DNA of 50,290 nt. Source: an uncultured Candidatus Saccharibacteria bacterium. GTDB lineage: Bacteria > Patescibacteriota > Minisyncoccia > Sungbacterales > JBBTQR01. The translations under genes were made by a program, and so were the position numbers. Location of the stretch: the NCBI GenBank assembly GCA_964365285.1, contig CAYIPF010000002.1, positions 1 to 50,290 of the forward strand. The letters run 5' to 3'. Shown one piece after another: positions 4,141 to 47,438 of the stretch. Positions within the stretch are counted from its first letter, which is position 1; the number at the start of each line of letters is the position of its first letter. A model generated the notes under the pieces. That model saw only the letters and a list, made by a program, of their open reading frames with translations, was not told the origin of the DNA and ran no database searches.

Positions 4141-4193
4141 ATGTAAAAGAACCTGCAAAAAGTACCATTATTGATGCTTTTGGTCAATTATTG
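4141..4193 (-). promoter_or_regulatory. 53-nt promoter cassette, copy 2
   Basis: Same sequence as 2138-2190 (3 substitutions). -35 at 4182-4187 and -10 at 4159-4164. It sits upstream of the acetyltransferase/aminotransferase pair. Confidence 0.55.
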
Positions 4194-8100: not shown

Positions 8101-9519
8101 TTATTTTGGAAACGATTCTATAAGCGCCTTAAGCACGCGTTCTGATGCTTTACCATCTAGTTTATAACACACTGTATCGCGAAGGTTTTTACGTCTTTCT
8201 GCGTCTAATGTAGGATTCTGAAAATAATCGTATAGAAATTTAAACAATTCTTCAAAGTTCCGAGCAGTTTTCAACGCGCCGGTTTTTAAAACATCCTGAA
8301 AGTGGTCAAACTCTTCAAAACGCCGAATTGAGTGGCGATACGGCCGTGTATGATGTCCGTCAAACGCAATTGCCATAAGTGGTCTGTCTAAAACAGCCGC
8401 TTCAAGCACCATTGTAGAATAAACAGAAATAACAACATCTGAATGATGCATGATGTTTATAAATTCTACGCTTTTCTCAAGGTCACCCCAAAACTCAAGC
8501 TGATAAAAACGCACGCGTGGATGCCCCTCAAAGCGATTGAATTTCTGTTCGTCAATTTCTTTGTCTTTCTTCCTGCCGCCAAGATACGGCCTAATGATCA
8601 CCCGTACATCAGAACCAAATTTTCCTTCATCAGCCCATTGGAGAATTGCATCAATAATCTCTGGTTCATCGGGACAGTACGCGCTTCCAGAAACATACAA
8701 GATGAGTTTTGCGTCAAGCGGAAAATTAAGCGATTTCAAAAGCTCTTCTCGCGAAACGTGATAATCGGTTCGCGAAATGAAATCAAAATGAGGATAGCCG
8801 GTAATCACAATTGACTGCTCACTATATGCCTGATGCTCGAGAGCCATCCGCTTCACCTGCTCGCTCTGCACTAAGAGCGTATCAACGTGAAATGGCAAAA
8901 AATATTTATCAAGATGATCCCAGCCGGCGGGCATACCAACGGTTTTGACCCCCTGCCGTTTTGCCTCGGCAATAAGCATAGTGTCAAACCAACCATATAA
9001 ATGCGGAGCAAAAACAACACCCGGCTTATACCGCTCAAAAGGTTTTTGAAACGGACGATCGATAAAAATTTTTAAATGAAGGGCTGGAACAAGCGCGGTC
9101 TTTAACCACGGAACACGCCCAAGTGTCCGCGCAATTATAATCTTCGCGGGTGCCAAATACCACCTTCCGCCCGCGGGCGGTTCATCAGGGCGCGTCCCCA
9201 TCGTCGCCATAACCTTTGTCGTACCGGTAAAAATAAGATAGGAGTAAAAAAAATAGAACATCTTTTGCAAAAAACTCTTCCGAGAAGGAATACCGACAAT
9301 TTCATACTGTATCCGATCCCCGAGTTCAGGGGTTTTTAAAAACGCACCATATTTTTCGCGAAACTGCGGTGGCACCAAAAATACAACCCGAAGCTCCGCA
9401 TGCGTCTGCATATATTCCTTGATCCGCTCGAAAAAACTCTGCGGAAAAAAGAAGAGATTTCTAAAAACCGCTGAGGATGATAGCGCGATAAAAATTGTTT
9501 TCTGTGTTGGCATATCCAT
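8101..9519 (-). CDS. TagB/TagF-like GT-B transferase, paralog 1 (family unresolved)
   Basis: The track start at 9525 is a TTG. ATGs lie at 9519 and 9513, so the start is uncertain. Shares motifs with three paralogs: KTIFI, YKPGVVF, GWDHL, TGYPHFD, KLILYVSG, VVISVYSTMVLEAAVLDRPL, and C-terminal DGKASERV. Confidence 0.6.
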   Translation of the reverse strand: MDMPTQKTIFIALSSSAVFRNLFFFPQSFFERIKEYMQTHAELRVVFLVPPQFREKYGAFLKTPELGDRIQYEIVGIPSRKSFLQKMFYFFYSYLIFTGTTKVMATMGTRPDEPPAGGRWYLAPAKIIIARTLGRVPWLKTALVPALHLKIFIDRPFQKPFERYKPGVVFAPHLYGWFDTMLIAEAKRQGVKTVGMPAGWDHLDKYFLPFHVDTLLVQSEQVKRMALEHQAYSEQSIVITGYPHFDFISRTDYHVSREELLKSLNFPLDAKLILYVSGSAYCPDEPEIIDAILQWADEGKFGSDVRVIIRPYLGGRKKDKEIDEQKFNRFEGHPRVRFYQLEFWGDLEKSVEFINIMHHSDVVISVYSTMVLEAAVLDRPLMAIAFDGHHTRPYRHSIRRFEEFDHFQDVLKTGALKTARNFEELFKFLYDYFQNPTLDAERRKNLRDTVCYKLDGKASERVLKALIESFPK

Positions 9520-9539
9520 ACACAATTAAATGTTTCCGA

Positions 9540-10955
9540 TTATTCAATCCTATGTTCTAAGCCGACAAATTGCAACAAGGCTTTCGCAAGCCGCTCCCCA
9601 GAGTTTCCGTCAAAAAACTCCGCTTCTTCTCGCACAATAGCACGGCGTTCATTATAAAGGCGCGCTGGCTCATTCAACGATTTCTGAATATGCAAAGCAA
9701 GTTCTTTCTTTGACTTTGCAAAATCAATACCGCCGCACCGCTTAATATCCGCCAAATGTTCCCATTCAAAAAAACGGCGGACGGAATTCCAGTAATTTTT
9801 TTGGCGCTCTCCGTCAAACGCAACGGCAATAAGCGGTTTATCAAAAATCGCCGCTTCAACCAAAAAAGTTGAGTACATGTTTATAACGACATCCGCATAA
9901 TTCAAACTACTTGAAAGAAATGCCAGCGACTCATCATTAAATTCCCACACATCTCTTCCTGTCGCAATATGATAGAGTGATGATTCGGCAAAAAAATCAT
10001 ATCGCCTCCGAATCTCGTCAAGCTTTTCCAAAGAAAAATCAAAACGGGGATACGGTCGAATGAGCACATGAGCATTCCACTCCTTGTGTTCTGAAACAAC
10101 TTCATAAAGAACTTTAAGCATTTCAAGATCGATTGAAAGCCCCGCCTTTCCAGAAAACGCGTACAAAATAAGTTTTTTTGTTGGATCGCCTCCAATGTGT
10201 TGAAAAAATTCTTTGCGCGACAAAATCCCTTCTTTGCGGAAATAACGATCATACTGCGGAATACCGATAACCGATATTTTGTCCGCCGGATAATCGCCAA
10301 ACCGTTCCGCTTGTTTTTTAATTCCGTGCGTATGGACAAGCAAACGGTCAGGATGAACCCGCAAAATCGCCTTGCTGTAAAAATTGTCCCATGAGTGCGT
10401 AAGACCAATCACAGGAATTCCCCGCGTTTTTGCTTCTTTTGCAATGCGATTTTCGGCATACAAAAGCGTTGGACAAAAAACGAGATCCGGTTTGTACTCA
10501 TCAAAAACTGCGGCATATATTCGTGAAGGAGTAATCCGATAAACGGCGCGAATAAATGCGCGCCAAAAATAAAATTGCCCAAAAAACCAACATACCCTCG
10601 CCAAAATAAAAAAGAAAAACCGCCGCACAAAAAAATCTCGCGAACCCTCCCGAAAAAACGCGTGTATCTGCTGAAGTGACGCGGTTCGCGTGTGAATACT
10701 TGAGACCTCAATAAATTTAAAAAAACGCTCTTGAAAACTTTTTGAAGCATCGTCAAAAGGAACGAACCGCGATCCAAAAGCTGAAAATTCTTTTGAGTAA
10801 TACTCGCGTCTGCTTTCCGGCACGAGAAATACGAGCAAAAGATCCGCGCGTTTTTTCAAGAGCTGATACGCATCGGTACGAAAAAAATTCCGCGAGAAAA
10901 ATCCGCTTGTTACCGGAATAAGAATCGTCTTTTTTCTTGAAATATTTTCGGTCAT
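9540..10955 (-). CDS. TagB/TagF-like GT-B transferase, paralog 2
   Basis: I place the start at the ATG at 10953-10955 (MTENISRKKTILIP). The track's longer 510-aa version adds a low-quality extension into the intergenic region. Motifs YKPDLVF, HSWDNF, IGIPQYD, KLILYAFSG, VVINMYSTFLVEAAIFDKPL, DGNSGERL. Confidence 0.65.
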   Translation of the reverse strand: MTENISRKKTILIPVTSGFFSRNFFRTDAYQLLKKRADLLLVFLVPESRREYYSKEFSAFGSRFVPFDDASKSFQERFFKFIEVSSIHTRTASLQQIHAFFREGSRDFFVRRFFFFILARVCWFFGQFYFWRAFIRAVYRITPSRIYAAVFDEYKPDLVFCPTLLYAENRIAKEAKTRGIPVIGLTHSWDNFYSKAILRVHPDRLLVHTHGIKKQAERFGDYPADKISVIGIPQYDRYFRKEGILSRKEFFQHIGGDPTKKLILYAFSGKAGLSIDLEMLKVLYEVVSEHKEWNAHVLIRPYPRFDFSLEKLDEIRRRYDFFAESSLYHIATGRDVWEFNDESLAFLSSSLNYADVVINMYSTFLVEAAIFDKPLIAVAFDGERQKNYWNSVRRFFEWEHLADIKRCGGIDFAKSKKELALHIQKSLNEPARLYNERRAIVREEAEFFDGNSGERLAKALLQFVGLEHRIE

Positions 10956-11006
10956 AGAACAGAAACAAATCCATGCATTCAACAAACCATCGAGACCATC
11001 TAAACT

Positions 11007-11016
11007 ATAATAACAC
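11007..11016 (-). promoter_or_regulatory. candidate extended -10 promoter (TGTTATTAT) for the paralog-2 operon
   Basis: Minus-strand GTGTTATTAT lies about 50 nt upstream of the ATG at 10955, just after the neuB terminator. Confidence 0.3.
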
Positions 11017-11038
11017 AAAAAAGAATGAAAATGTTTGT

Positions 11039-11086
11039 AAAAAATAAACGCCCTATTCTCATTTTGTCTCATTTTGAGAGGGCGTT
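11039..11086 (-). terminator. candidate terminator after neuB
   Basis: Stem AACGCCCT / AGGGCGTT (11047-11054 / 11079-11086), followed by TATTTTTT on the minus strand. The loop is long (24 nt) and contains CTCATTTTG twice. Confidence 0.5.
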
Positions 11087-19970: not shown

Positions 19971-20127
19971 AATAAAGCTCCTCGGGGCAGAGCCCCGAGG
20001 TATCGTTGGGACTCGCTTCGCTCGTACAATCGTAGGCCGAAGGCAGACGGCATTGACCTTTGTTCCGCCGTCGCGTCGAGAAAATGTGCGCATACGCACA
20101 TTTTCCTCTCCGCTAGGCGTAATAAAA
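19971..20127 (-). repeat. R-family structured repeat, copy R1
   Basis: 157 nt, differing from R2 by 3 substitutions. Contains three hairpins, including GAAAATGTGCG-CATA-CGCACATTTTC (plus strand) and CCTCGGGG-CAGAG-CCCCGAGG. Lies between the stop of cytidylyltransferase 2 and the ALDH promoter. Confidence 0.9.
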
Positions 20128-24100: not shown

Positions 24101-24257
24101 AATAAAGCTCCTCGGAGCAGAGCCCCGATGTATCGTTGGGACTCGCTTCGCTCGTACAATCGTAGGCCGAAGGCAGACGGTATTGACCTTTGTTCCGCCG
24201 TCGCGTCGAGAAAATGTGCGCATACGCACATTTTCCTCTCCGCTAGGCGTAATAAAA
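24101..24257 (-). repeat. R-family structured repeat, copy R2
   Basis: 154/157 identical to R1 and in the same orientation. It ends 17 nt upstream of the NeuB-2 ATG at 24084. Confidence 0.9.
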
Positions 24258-24401
24258 CTTAGCACGATGTTGTGTCGTCGTCACAATTAGCGAGTACCTA
24301 TTCATTCATGCTTGCATGTTTTTTATAACTTAAAAACCATGCAAAAAGTTTTAGAACAAAGATTTTTGATGCTATACGCATACAATAGTGTAATTTTAAT
24401 T

Positions 24402-28108: not shown

Positions 28109-28197
28109 GTTAATGTAAAGGAACTATTAAGTAGTAGCGCAAATCCTATAACCGTCAACCAGACGCATTTGTTTTAATGAACAACATTGATTACAAT

Positions 28198-28358
28198 AGA
28201 CCTACTGAACAAAGATTTTTCGTAGCGAAATGTTAATATTTTGAGCGAGACGAAGCAAAAATTATGAAGCATATACAGCGTATCTGTTGAATAATTTTTG
28301 CAAAGTCGCAGCCAAGATATTAACATTTCGCTACGAAAAATCTTTGTTCAGGAGGTCT
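28198..28358. repeat. S element, copy A: 161-nt element with 42-nt terminal inverted arms (MITE-like or structured RNA)
   Basis: Arms 28198-28239 and 28317-28358 are complementary at 41/42 positions. The inner 11-bp stem GCAAAAATTAT/ATAATTTTTGC (28255-28265 / 28291-28301) closes a 25-nt loop. TA dinucleotides flank the element on both sides. Confidence 0.9.
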
Positions 28359-28368
28359 AATAATTTCT

Positions 28369-38428: not shown

Positions 38429-38587
38429 AGACCCACTGCACAATTATTTTCGTAACGAAATTTTCATAGTTTGAGCGAGACGGTCTAAACATTCGAAGCA
38501 TATACGGTGTATCTGTTGAGAATGTTTGGCAAAGTCGGAGCCAAACATAGGGAAATTGCAGTAGAACAATAATTGCGTAGTGGGTCT
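38429..38587. repeat. S element, copy B
   Basis: Homologous to copy A and in the same orientation. Shares TTGAGCGAGACG, GAAGCATATAC(R)G(Y)GTATCTGTTGA and GCAAAGTCG(S)AGCCAA. The inner stem CTAAACATTC/GAATGTTTGG and the outer 19 bp of the terminal arms (GACCCACTGCACAATTATT) are paired. TA dinucleotides flank the element. Confidence 0.85.
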
Positions 38588-38619
38588 AAGATAACAAACA
38601 AAACCATAAAATCAAATTC

Positions 38620-43151: not shown

Positions 43152-43528
43152 ATGTTATTCTCTGTTTTTATTTATCCCCCCAAGAAAAGTTGCTTAATCC
43201 CGGGAAGAAGATTTTGCGCGACACATTACTCGACGAATAGCGCGCCCGCAAAACATTTCACAATTTAATTTTCTACCAACGGTACCATTCTGACATCTCT
43301 GCCAAAACAAAATCCAATTGGCCAAAAAAATACTACAATACTTTGAACCTTCTGTGTTTCGGAATTTTCTATACTCAAAAAAATTCCGATTCGTAATCTG
43401 AAATTCAGTAATCTATATTTGCTTTTCAATGAGCTATCGCTTCTGGAAAACAAATCCTTGCATCCTCAGCTCTGCACCTCAAACTCACAGTATATAGAAG
43501 CAGGACCGAAAGTGCAAATTATCAATGA

Positions 43529-43537
43529 TGTGGATAA
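43529..43537 (-). promoter_or_regulatory. perfect DnaA box (TGTGGATAA = reverse complement of TTATCCACA)
   Basis: Exact 9-mer within the 1.07-kb gene-free region. Confidence 0.6.
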
Positions 43538-43697
43538 CTTTTTTCTTAAAAACGCACAATTACAGGAAACTGCGCTTGGTTTCCTTGCCAATTCTTGTGC
43601 TCTATTATTATGACCCATAATGATCGCCGATCAAAAATATTGCAAACAATAGCATCAAACATATTATAGCGCATTATGAAAGTCAAGCAAATAATAG

Positions 43698-43706
43698 TTA
43701 TCCACA
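43698..43706 (+). promoter_or_regulatory. perfect DnaA box (TTATCCACA)
   Basis: Exact 9-mer, 161 nt from the other box and in the opposite orientation. Confidence 0.6.
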
Positions 43707-43882
43707 CCCCTTATTAAGTAAATACCGATTAAACGCGATCAAATGGCATGATTTTTGAATATTTTAAGCGATTTAAGCACTTTGTGCCGATTTCATCTAA
43801 CATGATTAGAGGAACAAGTGGATGAAAACACGCATATTTCGTTTCTAATCTTATCTCTTCCTTATATAGCGCGTTTATTTCT

Positions 43883-43959
43883 GTTTTTATTGTGGCTAGT
43901 GAGGAAGATATGAAAACAGAAGTTTTCATATCGACCGAGCGACGACACAAAATTGTACC
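43883..43959 (+). repeat. X repeat, copy X1
   Basis: 77 nt, 74/77 identical to the reverse complement of 47319-47395. Contains the perfect hairpin GATATGAAAAC AGAA GTTTTCATATC. It directly abuts R3. Confidence 0.9.
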
Positions 43960-44012
43960 CCGTTATATTACCTAGCGAAGATCGGGAAGCGGATACAGCA
44001 GTGTGCGCTTCC

Positions 44013-44048
44013 GAGCGAATGCGATGACCGAGCGCGAATGCGATGACC
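44013..44048 (+). repeat. 17-19-nt tandem duplication inside R3
   Basis: GAGCGAATGCGATGACC is followed by GAGCGCGAATGCGATGACC. Confidence 0.8.
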
Positions 44049-44059
44049 GAACGAGAGTG

Positions 44060-44119
44060 AGGAAATACTGAAGCCAGCAGGCGGAACGTAGGAAATACTA
44101 AGGCTAGCAAGCCGAATGT
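44060..44119 (+). repeat. 30-nt tandem duplication inside R3
   Basis: AGGAAATACTGAAGCCAGCAGGCGGAACGT is followed by AGGAAATACTAAGGCTAGCAAGCCGAATGT. Confidence 0.8.
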
Positions 44120-44223
44120 ACGGGAACAAAGGTTAATACCGTCCGCCTTTGGCGGACGATTGTACGAGCGAAGCGAGTTCCAACGATACCTTGGAGCTTT
44201 GCCCAGAGAAGCTTTATATTATT

Positions 44224-45081
44224 TTATTTTTTTAACGAATACATCGCCCATCTCCGATCCCCCGTTCTTTCAATCGCGTCTCGTTTAATAAGCTCGCTGA
44301 GATCGCGTTGTATTGTTTTTTGACCTATATTATTAAAAGACAATGCTATGTCCCTTATGCTTGCTTTGTCCTTTTTACCAAGAACATCGATAATTAGCTT
44401 GTGCCTCTCTGGGGATTTTTTCTGTATTTGATTTTCGTTTACAAATCGTTTTAAATCGTCTATTTTTGAGTGAGTAGGCAAAAATTCATTGCCCGTTTCT
44501 TTACGAATTAGCGATTCCGCTTTCATTGAAACAGAGTGCCGCTCCTGTGGCGCAGAAATTGCTTTTGCATTTTCCTCTCGCAAGAATCCAATTTTTGCTA
44601 CAAAGAAAAATTCTATTTCAGCGTATTCCCGATCTAAAACCTCTATATTAACGGACGATACAAACCGATTTACTCGCGCAAGCAATAAGACGCTTCTCAT
44701 CCCTCTTATTTTAGAAACAATTGACAGGAGCAATTCAAATGAATCACGAAGTGTTACATCGTAGCGTGTGGAATCTCGAAGTATTTCAAATGCCTCCTCG
44801 CGAAGTCGCCCTGCCAATATCTCGCGTTTTGGAAATAACGAAGTTACGCGATACACCGCGTGCGTTATCTCAAATATTTTTTTCTTTAATGCGTCTGATA
44901 AATCTCCTCGTGGCAAAGCCCCGAGGCATCCATCGGAACTCGCTTCGCTCGTACAAACGCGTGGCAAAGCCCGCGCGGTATTGACATTTGTTCCCGTCGC
45001 TTGCTCGGAAGCGTATACTGCTGTATCCGCTTCCCGACCTTCGCTAGGTAATAATTTTTCCTCGTTCATGTCATAAATCAT
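44224..45081 (-). CDS. helical (four-helix-bundle-like) domain plus C-terminal winged-HTH protein; start uncertain
   Basis: 285-aa ORF. C-terminal IRDIALSFNNIGQKTIQRDLSELIKRDAIERTG looks like a DeoR/MarR-type wHTH. The central FEITHAVYRVTSLFPKREILAGRLREEAFEIL resembles four-helix-bundle (23S-IVS-type) proteins. The first ~60 codons are encoded by repeat R4, and no internal ATG occurs before residue ~127. Confidence 0.55.
   Translation of the reverse strand: MIYDMNEEKLLPSEGREADTAVYASEQATGTNVNTARALPRVCTSEASSDGCLGALPRGDLSDALKKKIFEITHAVYRVTSLFPKREILAGRLREEAFEILRDSTRYDVTLRDSFELLLSIVSKIRGMRSVLLLARVNRFVSSVNIEVLDREYAEIEFFFVAKIGFLREENAKAISAPQERHSVSMKAESLIRKETGNEFLPTHSKIDDLKRFVNENQIQKKSPERHKLIIDVLGKKDKASIRDIALSFNNIGQKTIQRDLSELIKRDAIERTGDRRWAMYSLKK
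44904..45054 (-). repeat. R-family structured repeat, copy R4 (inside the 5' end of the 285-aa ORF)
   Basis: Sense strand: TTATTACCTAGCGAAGG, hairpin GGAAGCG/CGCTTCC, GGGAACAAATGTCAATACCG, hairpin GCGGGC/GCC(A)CGC, TTTGTACGAGCGAAGCGAGTTCC, hairpin CCTCGGGG/CCACGAGG. Confidence 0.85.
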
Positions 45082-45109: not shown

Positions 45110-47224
<2,115 letters not shown>

Positions 47225-47318
47225 TTATAGTATCATAGAGCGACTTGGGATGCCAGCGAAAAAACTTGCTTTGTTTAAATATTTTTGCGATAACAATGAA
47301 GAGTGCGAAATATAACTG

Positions 47319-47395
47319 GGTACAATTTTGTGTCGTCGCTCTGTCGATATGAAAACTTCTGTTTTCATATCTTCCTAGCTAGCCACAATAAAAAC
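47319..47395 (-). repeat. X repeat, copy X2 (inverted relative to X1)
   Basis: GGTACAATTTTGTGTCGTCGCTCTGTCGATATGAAAACTTCTGTTTTCATATCTTCCTAGCTAGCCACAATAAAAAC. Lies 119 nt upstream of the gyrB start. Confidence 0.9.
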
Positions 47396-47438
47396 CTCAT
47401 GAGACGAAACATCACAGGTTCTTATAGGAGGACGATTG

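Follow-up and report, generated by a model that had tools for sequence, protein, structure and literature searches.

What is a hairpin-rich sequence of about 150 nt doing in several copies between, and even within, the genes of a patescibacterium? The question is raised by a 50,290-nt stretch of DNA (hereafter the window; GenBank contig CAYIPF010000002.1), which is part of an 85,275-bp contig from a Hainich groundwater metagenome. The gyrB gene of the contig is annotated as that of a 'Patescibacteria group bacterium' (MEK7067255.1), and Sungbacteria/Parcubacteria are its nearest named relatives, at ~66% identity. A first-pass annotation made from the sequence alone had listed four copies of the repeat, here called R1 to R4 of family R, and all four are present where it placed them. 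It read R chiefly as a regulatory RNA upstream of genes, with a substrate for recombination or transposition of single-stranded DNA (ssDNA) given in brackets as an alternative. It is the bracketed alternative that the evidence favors.

The corresponding region was available from another Hainich well (contig L129), with a gyrB product 97% identical to that of the window, DNA 80-90% identical, and the same order of gyrB, a helix-turn-helix (HTH) gene, and a gene for a protein of 1166 amino acids. The R copies are absent from this syntenic region. At the R4 site the empty L129 allele reads GAACGAAGAAAA-TTTAT-CAGATG, and the filled allele of the window reads GAACGAGGAAAAA-TTAT|TACCTAGCG...GGAGA-TTTAT|CAGACG, an exact junction from which the element begins with TACC. 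The HTH protein of L129 begins MMNEENLSDVLKKK. R3 is also missing from L129, together with S1, the partial copy next to it, although divergence of the flanks prevents an exact junction from being defined at that site.

A second empty site was found for a copy in L104 (the same locus as L014, from a Nomurabacteria genome), which lies antisense within an open reading frame (ORF) for a HemK/PrmC-like methyltransferase. HemK chains from the PDB align on both sides of the insert. The ORF is 320 amino acids long versus 245-283 in all 120 best homologues, none of which has the insert, and comparison with the protein P0121 gave 256 identities in 268 positions and a single clean gap of 52 residues. In the sense of the element, the empty allele (L137) reads ..TAT-TTCAT-TTTTCTC and the filled L104 allele reads ..TAT-TTTAT|TTTGTCTAGCG...GGAACC-TTTAT|TTTTCTC. 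Precise insertions of 153 and 156 nt are thus seen at a pentamer of the T(T/C)TAT type at two independent sites. R is a mobile, non-autonomous element, a conclusion that we hold with high confidence.

The ends of R were compared in 17 copies. In the sense of the element, every copy has a T[TA]TAT-like pentamer on its left and TTTAT (once TATAT) on its right. TTTAT and never ATAAA stands on the left in all 17, showing that the orientation of insertion is fixed. There is no complementarity between the left end, T(n2-7)TAGCGAGG, and the right, ..GGAACCTTTAT, and no terminal inverted repeats were found in the 17 copies. A miniature inverted-repeat transposable element (MITE) moved by a DDE-type transposase was rejected for this lack of terminal inverted repeats and for the strict coupling of orientation (17/17), which argues against it. 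The right pentamer is TTTAT in 15 of 16 copies and the left one in 11 of 16 (variants ATTAT, CTTAT, and TATAT), with the two unequal in 5 of the 16. Because the right pentamer is nearly invariant and the left variable, a target on the left and the element's own end on the right explain the pattern better than a genuine duplication would. The bases that follow the left pentamer belong to the element, since they are conserved within subfamilies at different loci, and upstream of the copies there is no conservation beyond TTTAT. What had been described as a U-rich tail is the conserved terminal pentamer, and the same pentamer stands ahead of every copy.

Between its ends, R has a constant order of parts. 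After TTTAT and a short variable spacer come TAGCG(A/G)(A/G)G, a first hairpin (HP1), a linker ending CAAT(A/G)CC, and a second hairpin (HP2). These are followed by the block TTGTACGAGCGAAGCGAGT(T/C)CC, (A/G)ATACC, a GC-rich third hairpin (HP3), GGAGC/GGAACC, and TTTAT. From the left junction to the foot of HP1 there are 12-15 nt, and from the foot of HP3 to the right end 9-11 nt. The three hairpins with compensated stems proposed by the first-pass annotation were confirmed. In a covariance-model alignment of the 17 copies, which come from the window and from other metagenomes and genomes, 94% of cells are paired and both partners have changed in 19 of 27 pairs, figures that are somewhat favored by the fitting of the alignment to the model. 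This support was equaled by none of 500 shuffles, and slid-partner controls paired at 34-52%. RNAalifold, run on an independent MAFFT alignment of 16 copies, recovered the three hairpins with 17 of 27 pairs compensated. R1 itself folds with z = -3.95 as RNA and z = -4.67 as DNA relative to shuffled sequences. A long-range pairing of the 5' TAGCGAGG with the 5' arm of HP2, seen in the minimum free energy fold of the L011 copy, was discarded, as it does not covary across copies.

HP1 is the most variable part: all 10 modeled pairs are changed on both sides across copies, its sequence is fully replaced between subfamilies, and its mismatches (G.T:A.C = 14:2) favor the sense strand. HP2 lies where it had been placed, but its stem is imperfect in R1 and R2 (6/8 pairs) and forms a perfect 8-bp GC-rich helix in most other copies. 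HP2 and HP3 are alike, each with AATA ahead, ACC, an 8-9-bp GC stem, and a CTTG/CTTTG/CTCTG loop. The motif GAGCGAAG is present three times per element. As judged from these repeated parts, R has the appearance of a variable 5' module followed by two homologous ones.

The 18-mer TGTACGAGCGAAGCGAGT, reported earlier as invariant, is exact in all four of the listed copies, against a chance expectation of 0.01. It had been taken to be unpaired. However, it can fold as G(T)AC-GA-GCGAAGC-GA-GT(T)C around d(GCGAAGC), a DNA mini-hairpin of extraordinary stability that occurs, among other places, at the single-strand priming sites of phage G4-type origins (PMC13037366). The motif TGTAC-GA-GCGAAGC-GA-GTACA tops longer hairpins in many unrelated contigs. 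Because the same motif forms hairpin tips there, the 18-mer block of R is probably a fourth, compact hairpin.

Ends and fold together bear on the main rival to movement as a folded strand, namely movement of double-stranded DNA by a core-specific recombinase, either a DEDD enzyme as in IS110 and IS492 or a serine or tyrosine recombinase, with TTTAT as core and excision as a circle. Such a circle would carry a single TTTAT and integrate at TTTAT sites elsewhere, making the flanking pentamers a true direct repeat. IS492 is reported to be flanked by a specific 5-bp direct repeat and to excise precisely as a circle. The same pentamer flanks every R copy on both sides, the empty sites hold one, and insertion is strictly orientation-specific without terminal inverted repeats; the half elements (below), which end at AAT|T pseudo-sites, could result from pseudo-core recombination. 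Nevertheless, the flanking pentamers are unequal in almost a third of the copies, with the right one much better kept, which counts mildly against an IS110/IS492-like element. The stems covary without conservation of sequence, an indication that what is recognized is a folded single strand and not a duplex site. A recombinase gene was seen near no copy. We therefore regard a duplex recombinase as unlikely.

Gene context did not sustain the reading as a regulatory RNA. The copies are insertion polymorphisms absent from close relatives, and truncated, nested, and degenerate copies exist. Over the eight copies of the contig, orientation to the adjacent genes is mixed, about four with and about four against. 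R1 starts 16 nt past the TAA of a CTP_transf_3 gene and ends 81 nt ahead of the ATG of an aldehyde dehydrogenase (ALDH) gene, and R2 ends ~17 nt ahead of the probable start codon of a NeuB gene. The position upstream of a same-strand gene that had also been given for R4 is incorrect, as R4 falls within the coding sequence of the HTH gene, in its 5' part and in sense orientation. The genes adjacent to copies are functionally unrelated: those flanking 10 loci have no common function and include no transposase. A riboswitch or leader was rejected on this context.

A functional structured RNA, either a small RNA gene or a cis-acting leader or terminator, whose spread would be secondary, has points in its favor. 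It would account for the compensated hairpins and the stable fold, the excess of G.U over A.C on the sense strand of HP1, the co-orientation of three of the four listed copies with adjacent genes, and the weak resemblance of HP3 plus UUUAU to an intrinsic terminator in R1. However, HP3 passed a consensus terminator scan in R1 only (1/4 copies), R has no match in Rfam, nothing upstream is kept beyond TTTAT, and orientation and neighbors are as described above. Copies that lie within coding regions, antisense in the methyltransferase gene and sense in the HTH gene, and the close relatives that lack copies, also argue against such a function, which we consider quite improbable. A promoter-driven small RNA had likewise been considered for the TTTAT box and an 87-nt inverted repeat (43883-43969/47309-47395, ACGACA-16-TATATT); it was dropped when nhmmer and cmsearch identified both 87-nt arms as the partial R copies S1 and S2.

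The generalization that indels between copies break every reading frame does not hold for copies within genes, which keep the frame of their host. The ORF of the HTH gene (45081..44224) reads through R4 in frame with a gain of 51 codons, and the L104 copy adds exactly 52 codons to the HemK-like gene. In 11 of 17 copies the net number of bases added is divisible by 3 (~10 of 16 lineages; one-third expected). In R1, R2, R4, and L011, though not in the other copies, 4 of 6 frames are stop-free (P <= 0.01 versus dinucleotide shuffles).

These open frames, and the two stop-free intragenic copies, are what might be expected of a protein-coding module, a peptide insert selected for its effect on the host protein in the manner of a Rickettsia palindromic element (RPE). 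Against this, the intragenic copies use different strands and frames and so share no peptide, they number 2 of ~20, most copies being intergenic, and many copies have stops in most frames. Moreover, a kept frame is expected from purifying selection on the host gene. Of the readings considered, a coding module is the least credible. We interpret the in-frame copies as tolerance filtered by selection, possibly reinforced at the level of the family, and not as the function of the element. Gene calls across R include a 96-amino acid antisense ORF over R1 (L030 9692-9982), the HTH gene lengthened to 281-285 amino acids through R4 (L135 12158-13003), and a 186-amino acid 'protein' that is the antisense of a long R copy (P0242). 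Among 1.84 billion representative proteins, the single match to a 53-amino acid antisense peptide was a spurious ORF across another long R copy, and a concatenated six-frame translation had no protein match.

The limits of the copies and of the parts of R1 are given in Table 1. The count of only four copies proved too low: there are six members in the window when the partial copies S1 and S2 are included, and a contig-wide search with nhmmer and cmsearch found eight in 63 kb, the others being R5 and a solo half element. R1 and R2 are 98% identical over 150 nt at different loci, and three short-read contigs (L031, L033, and L034) terminate within R1. The upstream flank of R2 (24258-24285) is similar to block B of the S-type partial copy. 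R3 holds ~105 nt of internally duplicated modules (~44017-44121), and the same insert is found in R5 on the same contig. These extra modules, two small units of AATACT plus hairpin, arose by internal tandem duplication. The two alleles of another locus (L001 and L068) differ in that one has an extra 20-nt perfect hairpin (CCTGCCTGCCGGCAGGCAGG) after CCGAGC. The ~100-nt module insert of R3 and R5 is at this same position, which is thus a hot spot for internal insertion.

Table 1. Copies of R in the window and parts of R1. Full elements are counted from the base that follows the left pentamer and include the terminal TTTAT.
Feature	Position	Strand	Remarks
R1, full element, 150 nt	19972..20121	-	covariance model 154 bits
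R1, target pentamer TTTAT	20126-20122	-	element starts with T
R1, own terminal TTTAT	19976-19972	-	
HP1 of R1 (GAGAGGAAAATGTGCG-TAT-GCGCACATTTTCTC)	20078..20110	-	sequence varies between subfamilies
HP2 of R1, imperfect	20031..20049	-	conserved CAAT(G/A)CC ahead
18-mer of R1 (TGTACGAGCGAAGCGAGT)	20011..20028	-	d(GCGAAGC) mini-hairpin within, tandem GA at both sides
HP3 of R1 (CCTCGGGGC-TCT-GCCCCGAGG)	19980..20000	-	(C/G)(A/G)ATACC ahead; 9-11 nt before right end
R2, full element	24102..24251	-	target pentamer 24256-24252
S1, 78-nt partial copy, diverged subfamily	43891..43968	+	covariance model 33 bits
R3, long full element, 249 nt	43969..44217	+	HTH gene convergent, its stop codon 6 nt beyond the right end
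R4, full element, 153 nt (51 codons)	44898..45050	-	left pentamer ATTAT 45055-45051; right TTTAT 44902-44898
S2, 78-nt S-type partial element	47310..47387	-	gyrB upstream region; 34 bits over 47198-47396

Partial copies fall into recurrent types. S1 consists of the left end, one hairpin, and the CCGAGCGACGAC block, terminates in TATAT, and is 95% identical to S2. The covariance model also aligns weakly beyond S2 as far as 47205 (..GACTTTAT), which leaves 4 nt to the gyrB start codon (ATG at 47200). R3 is inserted exactly behind S1, whose terminal TATAT is the target pentamer of R3. R5 is similarly a 66-nt half element directly joined to a long copy (R5a-R5b). The solo 66-nt half element has limits identical to those of the R5 half and ends ..GGGAACACAAT. 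Degenerate or internally deleted copies are found in other contigs (L057b and L100b). The GTDB copy of the Nomurabacteria element (L014 ~1850-1945) has, exactly inside R, a run of ~95 N in place of 24 nt of the metagenome version (L104); the repeat probably gave rise to this run as a scaffolding gap.

The partial copies are informative about a route through RNA, in which a transcript ending ..UUUAU would anneal to nicked TTTAT/ATAAA and be copied by a host reverse transcriptase, in the manner of a short interspersed nuclear element. Reverse transcriptases (of group II introns and diversity-generating retroelements) are common in the candidate phyla radiation (CPR), and R has a terminator-like 3' end whose terminal pentamer is also its target. 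However, the truncated copies retain the 5' end and lose the 3' end, the opposite of the outcome of target-primed reverse transcription, and R has no internal promoter and a left boundary as sharp as the right. An RNA intermediate is barely credible on these grounds.

Relatives of R were sought with the 18-mer. In a scan of one genome per species, 29 loci were found, and the whole element was present at only five of these, all from Patescibacteria (two from Saccharibacteria and one each from Nomurabacteria, Lloydbacteria, and an unclassified member). A scan of metagenomes added about a dozen full copies among 90 18-mer matches. The majority of the 29 genome and 90 metagenome matches were rejected as chance or as other repeats with a GCGAAGC tip, other upstream 'ORFs' near the matches were spurious, and four matches in a scan of viral contigs were all chance. 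Phage and plasmid BLAST searches with R gave no match. R matched no Rfam family, in line with the first-pass annotation, which had recognized none: Rfam gave no matches in the window at the gathering threshold, only noise for R1 at E<=10 (mir-563, 17.8 bits vs 73), and no match on contig L058.

The 18-mer is also used in other repeats. It is found in metagenome-assembled genomes of Syntrophomonadaceae as ..ATCTG-18mer-CAGTGTTGAAT (L007-L009, L012, L013, L016, and L020) and as 18mer-GTTAGAG in ~16 contigs of metagenome Ga0307985 (e.g. L039, L040, L061, and L079), suggesting that the GCGAAGC mini-hairpin module is widely reused. Contig L058 carries an IS608-like element at 1-1806, with a Y1_Tnp fragment, TnpB, left- and right-end hairpins at 6-27 and 1772-1793, and the right end TCAA; a short R-like sequence (1862-1986) lies with that right end 140 nt away. 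A related short element ending GGATTTTAT was found in the same metagenome (L103 1016-1121), and R-like elements may thus exist outside the CPR. The 18-mer of L058, 150 nt downstream of the TnpB gene, was considered as part of a TnpB omega RNA. This idea was refuted, as the insertion sequence (IS) ends at ~1806 with TCAA, its right hairpin is at 1772-1793, and the 18-mer is outside it, 140 nt beyond the right end.

The mechanism that we propose treats R as a gene-less, non-autonomous mobile DNA of ~145-250 nt of the Patescibacteria (CPR). R inserts directly 3' of a (T)TTAT pentamer in a single orientation, starting with T and ending with its own TTTAT. One strand carries the variable HP1 and then the two similar GC-rich hairpins HP2 and HP3, each behind AATACC, with the GCGAAGC mini-hairpin between them. 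Excision and insertion would take place as a folded single strand and be catalyzed by a transposase encoded elsewhere in the genome, most likely an HUH/Y1 enzyme, as for the 'peel-and-paste' movement of IS200/IS605 and of their ORF-less derivatives, the palindrome-associated transposable elements (PATEs), which the Y1/HUH transposase TnpA mobilizes in trans. The left pentamer would be the transposon-adjacent motif (TAM) and the terminal TTTAT the transposon-encoded motif (TEM). Because TAM and TEM would be nearly identical, the end of a copy would itself be a target, which fits the head-to-tail pairs S1-R3 and R5a-R5b. The discrete 66-nt half elements would arise where a TEM-like site inside the element (..A(A/C)AAT) is used, and copies landing in genes would survive only when they comprise whole codons without a stop, as the intragenic copies do.

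The IS200/IS605 family provides the pattern for this proposal. In IS608, cleavage occurs 19 nt 5' of the hairpin foot on the left and 10 nt 3' of it on the right, guided by the four nucleotides 5' of each foot (PMC3201880). The TAMs of Geobacillus IS200/IS605 elements include TTTAT (ISGst2) and TTCAT (ISGst5), TAM and TEM differ at two positions only, motif and guide are spaced flexibly, TEM-like sites also serve as alternative ends, and ORF-less PATEs exist (10.1101/2023.03.14.532601). In R, the AATA ahead of HP2 and HP3 is complementary to TTAT/TATT. In one subfamily (L106, L063, and L100b) the right end has become TATAT, and with it the motif on the 5' side of HP3 has changed (AATAC->ATTAC); L106, which has the only intact left part of the subfamily, retains a standard left pentamer and HP2-side motif.

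Several observations weigh against this proposal. No transposase of any kind was found beside a copy or in the R-bearing loci, and phmmer with an approximate IS608 TnpA query against all ORFs of 137 loci found only the unrelated IS of L058, the sequence searched amounting to ~0.9 Mb in total, of which much less is from R-bearing contigs. HP1 is unlike HP3, whereas the two end hairpins of IS608 are alike; HP3 does have a counterpart in HP2, which is, however, ~90 nt away from the left end. The half elements carry HP1 only and do not obviously provide two hairpins, and copies on the 85-kb contig show no strand bias. At both empty sites a 5-bp target duplication and a TAM plus TEM are inseparable, as each requires one substitution either way. 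The co-variation of TEM and HP3 motif is one case, possibly of shared ancestry, and elsewhere the motifs 5' of HP2 and HP3 vary (GATA, GATG, AACA, and AATG) with TTTAT unchanged, leaving a guide loosely supported. The wobble asymmetry is seen in HP1 only. Finally, the invariance of the 18-mer across phyla is by construction, since all copies from outside the contig were retrieved through the exact 18-mer; R5, found independently of it, has one mismatch.

On balance, a gene-less non-autonomous element that moves as a folded single strand by means of a transposase encoded elsewhere is the best explanation of R as a whole, and we put it at slightly better than an even chance. The ssDNA intermediate and an HUH enzyme specifically, which are suggested by analogy with IS608 and its relatives, are proposed tentatively and at somewhat less than even chance. 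A further idea is that the two modules of GAGCGAAG linker, AAUACC, and hairpin might be paired recognition modules, in RNA or ssDNA, one reading the TTTAT(T) target core and the other the element's own junction. They would form R's own targeting device for a CPR recombinase, analogous to the target and donor loops of the IS110 bridge RNA or to the DNA guides of IS200/IS605, with GCGAAGC priming or protecting the single strand. We rate this as very improbable.

The window contains other features of note. A second ~160-nt repeat family, unrelated to R, has members at 28197-28359 and 38430-38590 that are 81-84% identical. Each member folds almost perfectly into one long hairpin, is bounded by the terminal inverted repeats TAGACCYACTG...CAGTRGGTCTA, has the conserved core TTTGAGCGAGACG ... 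GAAGCATATACRGYGTATCTGTTGA, and resembles a classical MITE. In two intergenic spacers of a sugar-modification cluster (2138-2190 and 4141-4193) there is a direct repeat of 53 nt, 94% identical, that could be a shared regulatory or terminator sequence or the remnant of a duplication. Between the gene for a 1164-amino acid PG_binding protein and S1/R3 there are ~730 nt without a convincing ORF (43152-43880), the L129 counterpart of which is shorter and diverged. Tandem paralogous Glyphos_transf genes (8356-8450/9810-9904, neighboring ORFs 8101-9525 and 9540-11072) belong to a cluster that also has two NeuB, two CTP_transf_3, and several methyltransferase genes. This cluster is a large, internally duplicated locus for the synthesis of nonulosonic acid and teichoic acid-like glycans in a CPR genome.

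Patescibacteria have tiny genomes that are thought to be poor in mobile DNA. R is nevertheless active enough to differ between strains of one aquifer and is common to several CPR classes, making it a marker for strain dynamics and horizontal exchange in uncultured episymbionts. In practical terms, R causes assembly breaks in metagenome-assembled genomes of the CPR, and yields both spurious ORFs and real peptide inserts in conserved proteins. The TTTAT target, defined ends, and folded strand provide a handle for finding the mobilizing transposase, and interest would rise if that enzyme were unusual or the modules proved to be guides. R would also be a second, independent case of a 'protein-coding palindrome' beyond Rickettsia, which would suggest that such behavior results generally where genomes are reduced and intergenic space is scarce.

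Among known systems, the PATEs are similar to R in having no terminal inverted repeats, no gene of their own, a similar pentamer at the 3' end, hairpins of one strand placed near the ends at distances like those of IS608, insertion in a fixed orientation 3' of an AT-rich pentamer, and alternative TEM-like ends. R differs in that no cognate TnpA or parent IS was identified, in its hypervariable HP1, which is unlike the right-end hairpin, in its three to four hairpins with a GCGAAGC mini-hairpin, in its single-hairpin halves, in its CPR hosts, and in lacking similarity to any IS or omega RNA in Rfam. Because the end hairpins do not match and no transposase was identified, we have not filed R as a PATE. 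The RPEs are likewise ~100-150-bp hairpin repeats of host-dependent bacteria with reduced genomes, with no known transposase, and R resembles them in behavior only, by occurring both in intergenic regions and in frame inside unrelated genes, to which it adds a peptide (PMC10969869). However, the hosts are unrelated, R has a defined pentamer as target and end, and the intragenic fraction reported above compares with nearly half for RPE-1. R was not filed as an RPE because membership is defined by Rickettsia sequence families.

With the REP/BIME elements and their RAYT (TnpA-REP), and with the BOX, ERIC, Correia, and SPRITE repeats, R shares a conserved short motif before a GC-rich hairpin (AATACC in R, GTAG in REPs), modular duplicable units, a mostly intergenic location, and, as in SPRITE, a terminator-like hairpin. 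R is instead a fixed-order composite of different hairpins with defined ends and empty-site polymorphism, and in contrast to Correia and ERIC it lacks terminal inverted repeats. The first-pass annotation had recognized neither a REP nor an attC site in R, and both judgments stand: the hairpin motif is not GTAG and no Y1 gene adjoins any copy, whereas for attC the ends TTTATT..TAGCG and GGAACCTTTAT are not complementary, the core sites are absent, and the hairpins are three separate ones. Single-strand origins and priming signals (sso of rolling-circle plasmids, the phage G4 origin, and ssi signals) resemble R in being ~150 nt, orientation-specific, and hairpin-rich, with structure kept more than sequence. 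We also take the TAGCG motif of R to resemble the CS-6 motif of ssoA origins. A mini-hairpin of the GCGNAGC type is a further likeness (PMC13037366). R differs from these origins by its many chromosomal copies, its two orientations within 63 kb, its polymorphism, and the absence of a plasmid or phage context. In the literature searched there is no description of such an element in the CPR, and R is best placed as a previously undescribed family among the small, hairpin-bearing, non-autonomous mobile repeats of bacteria.

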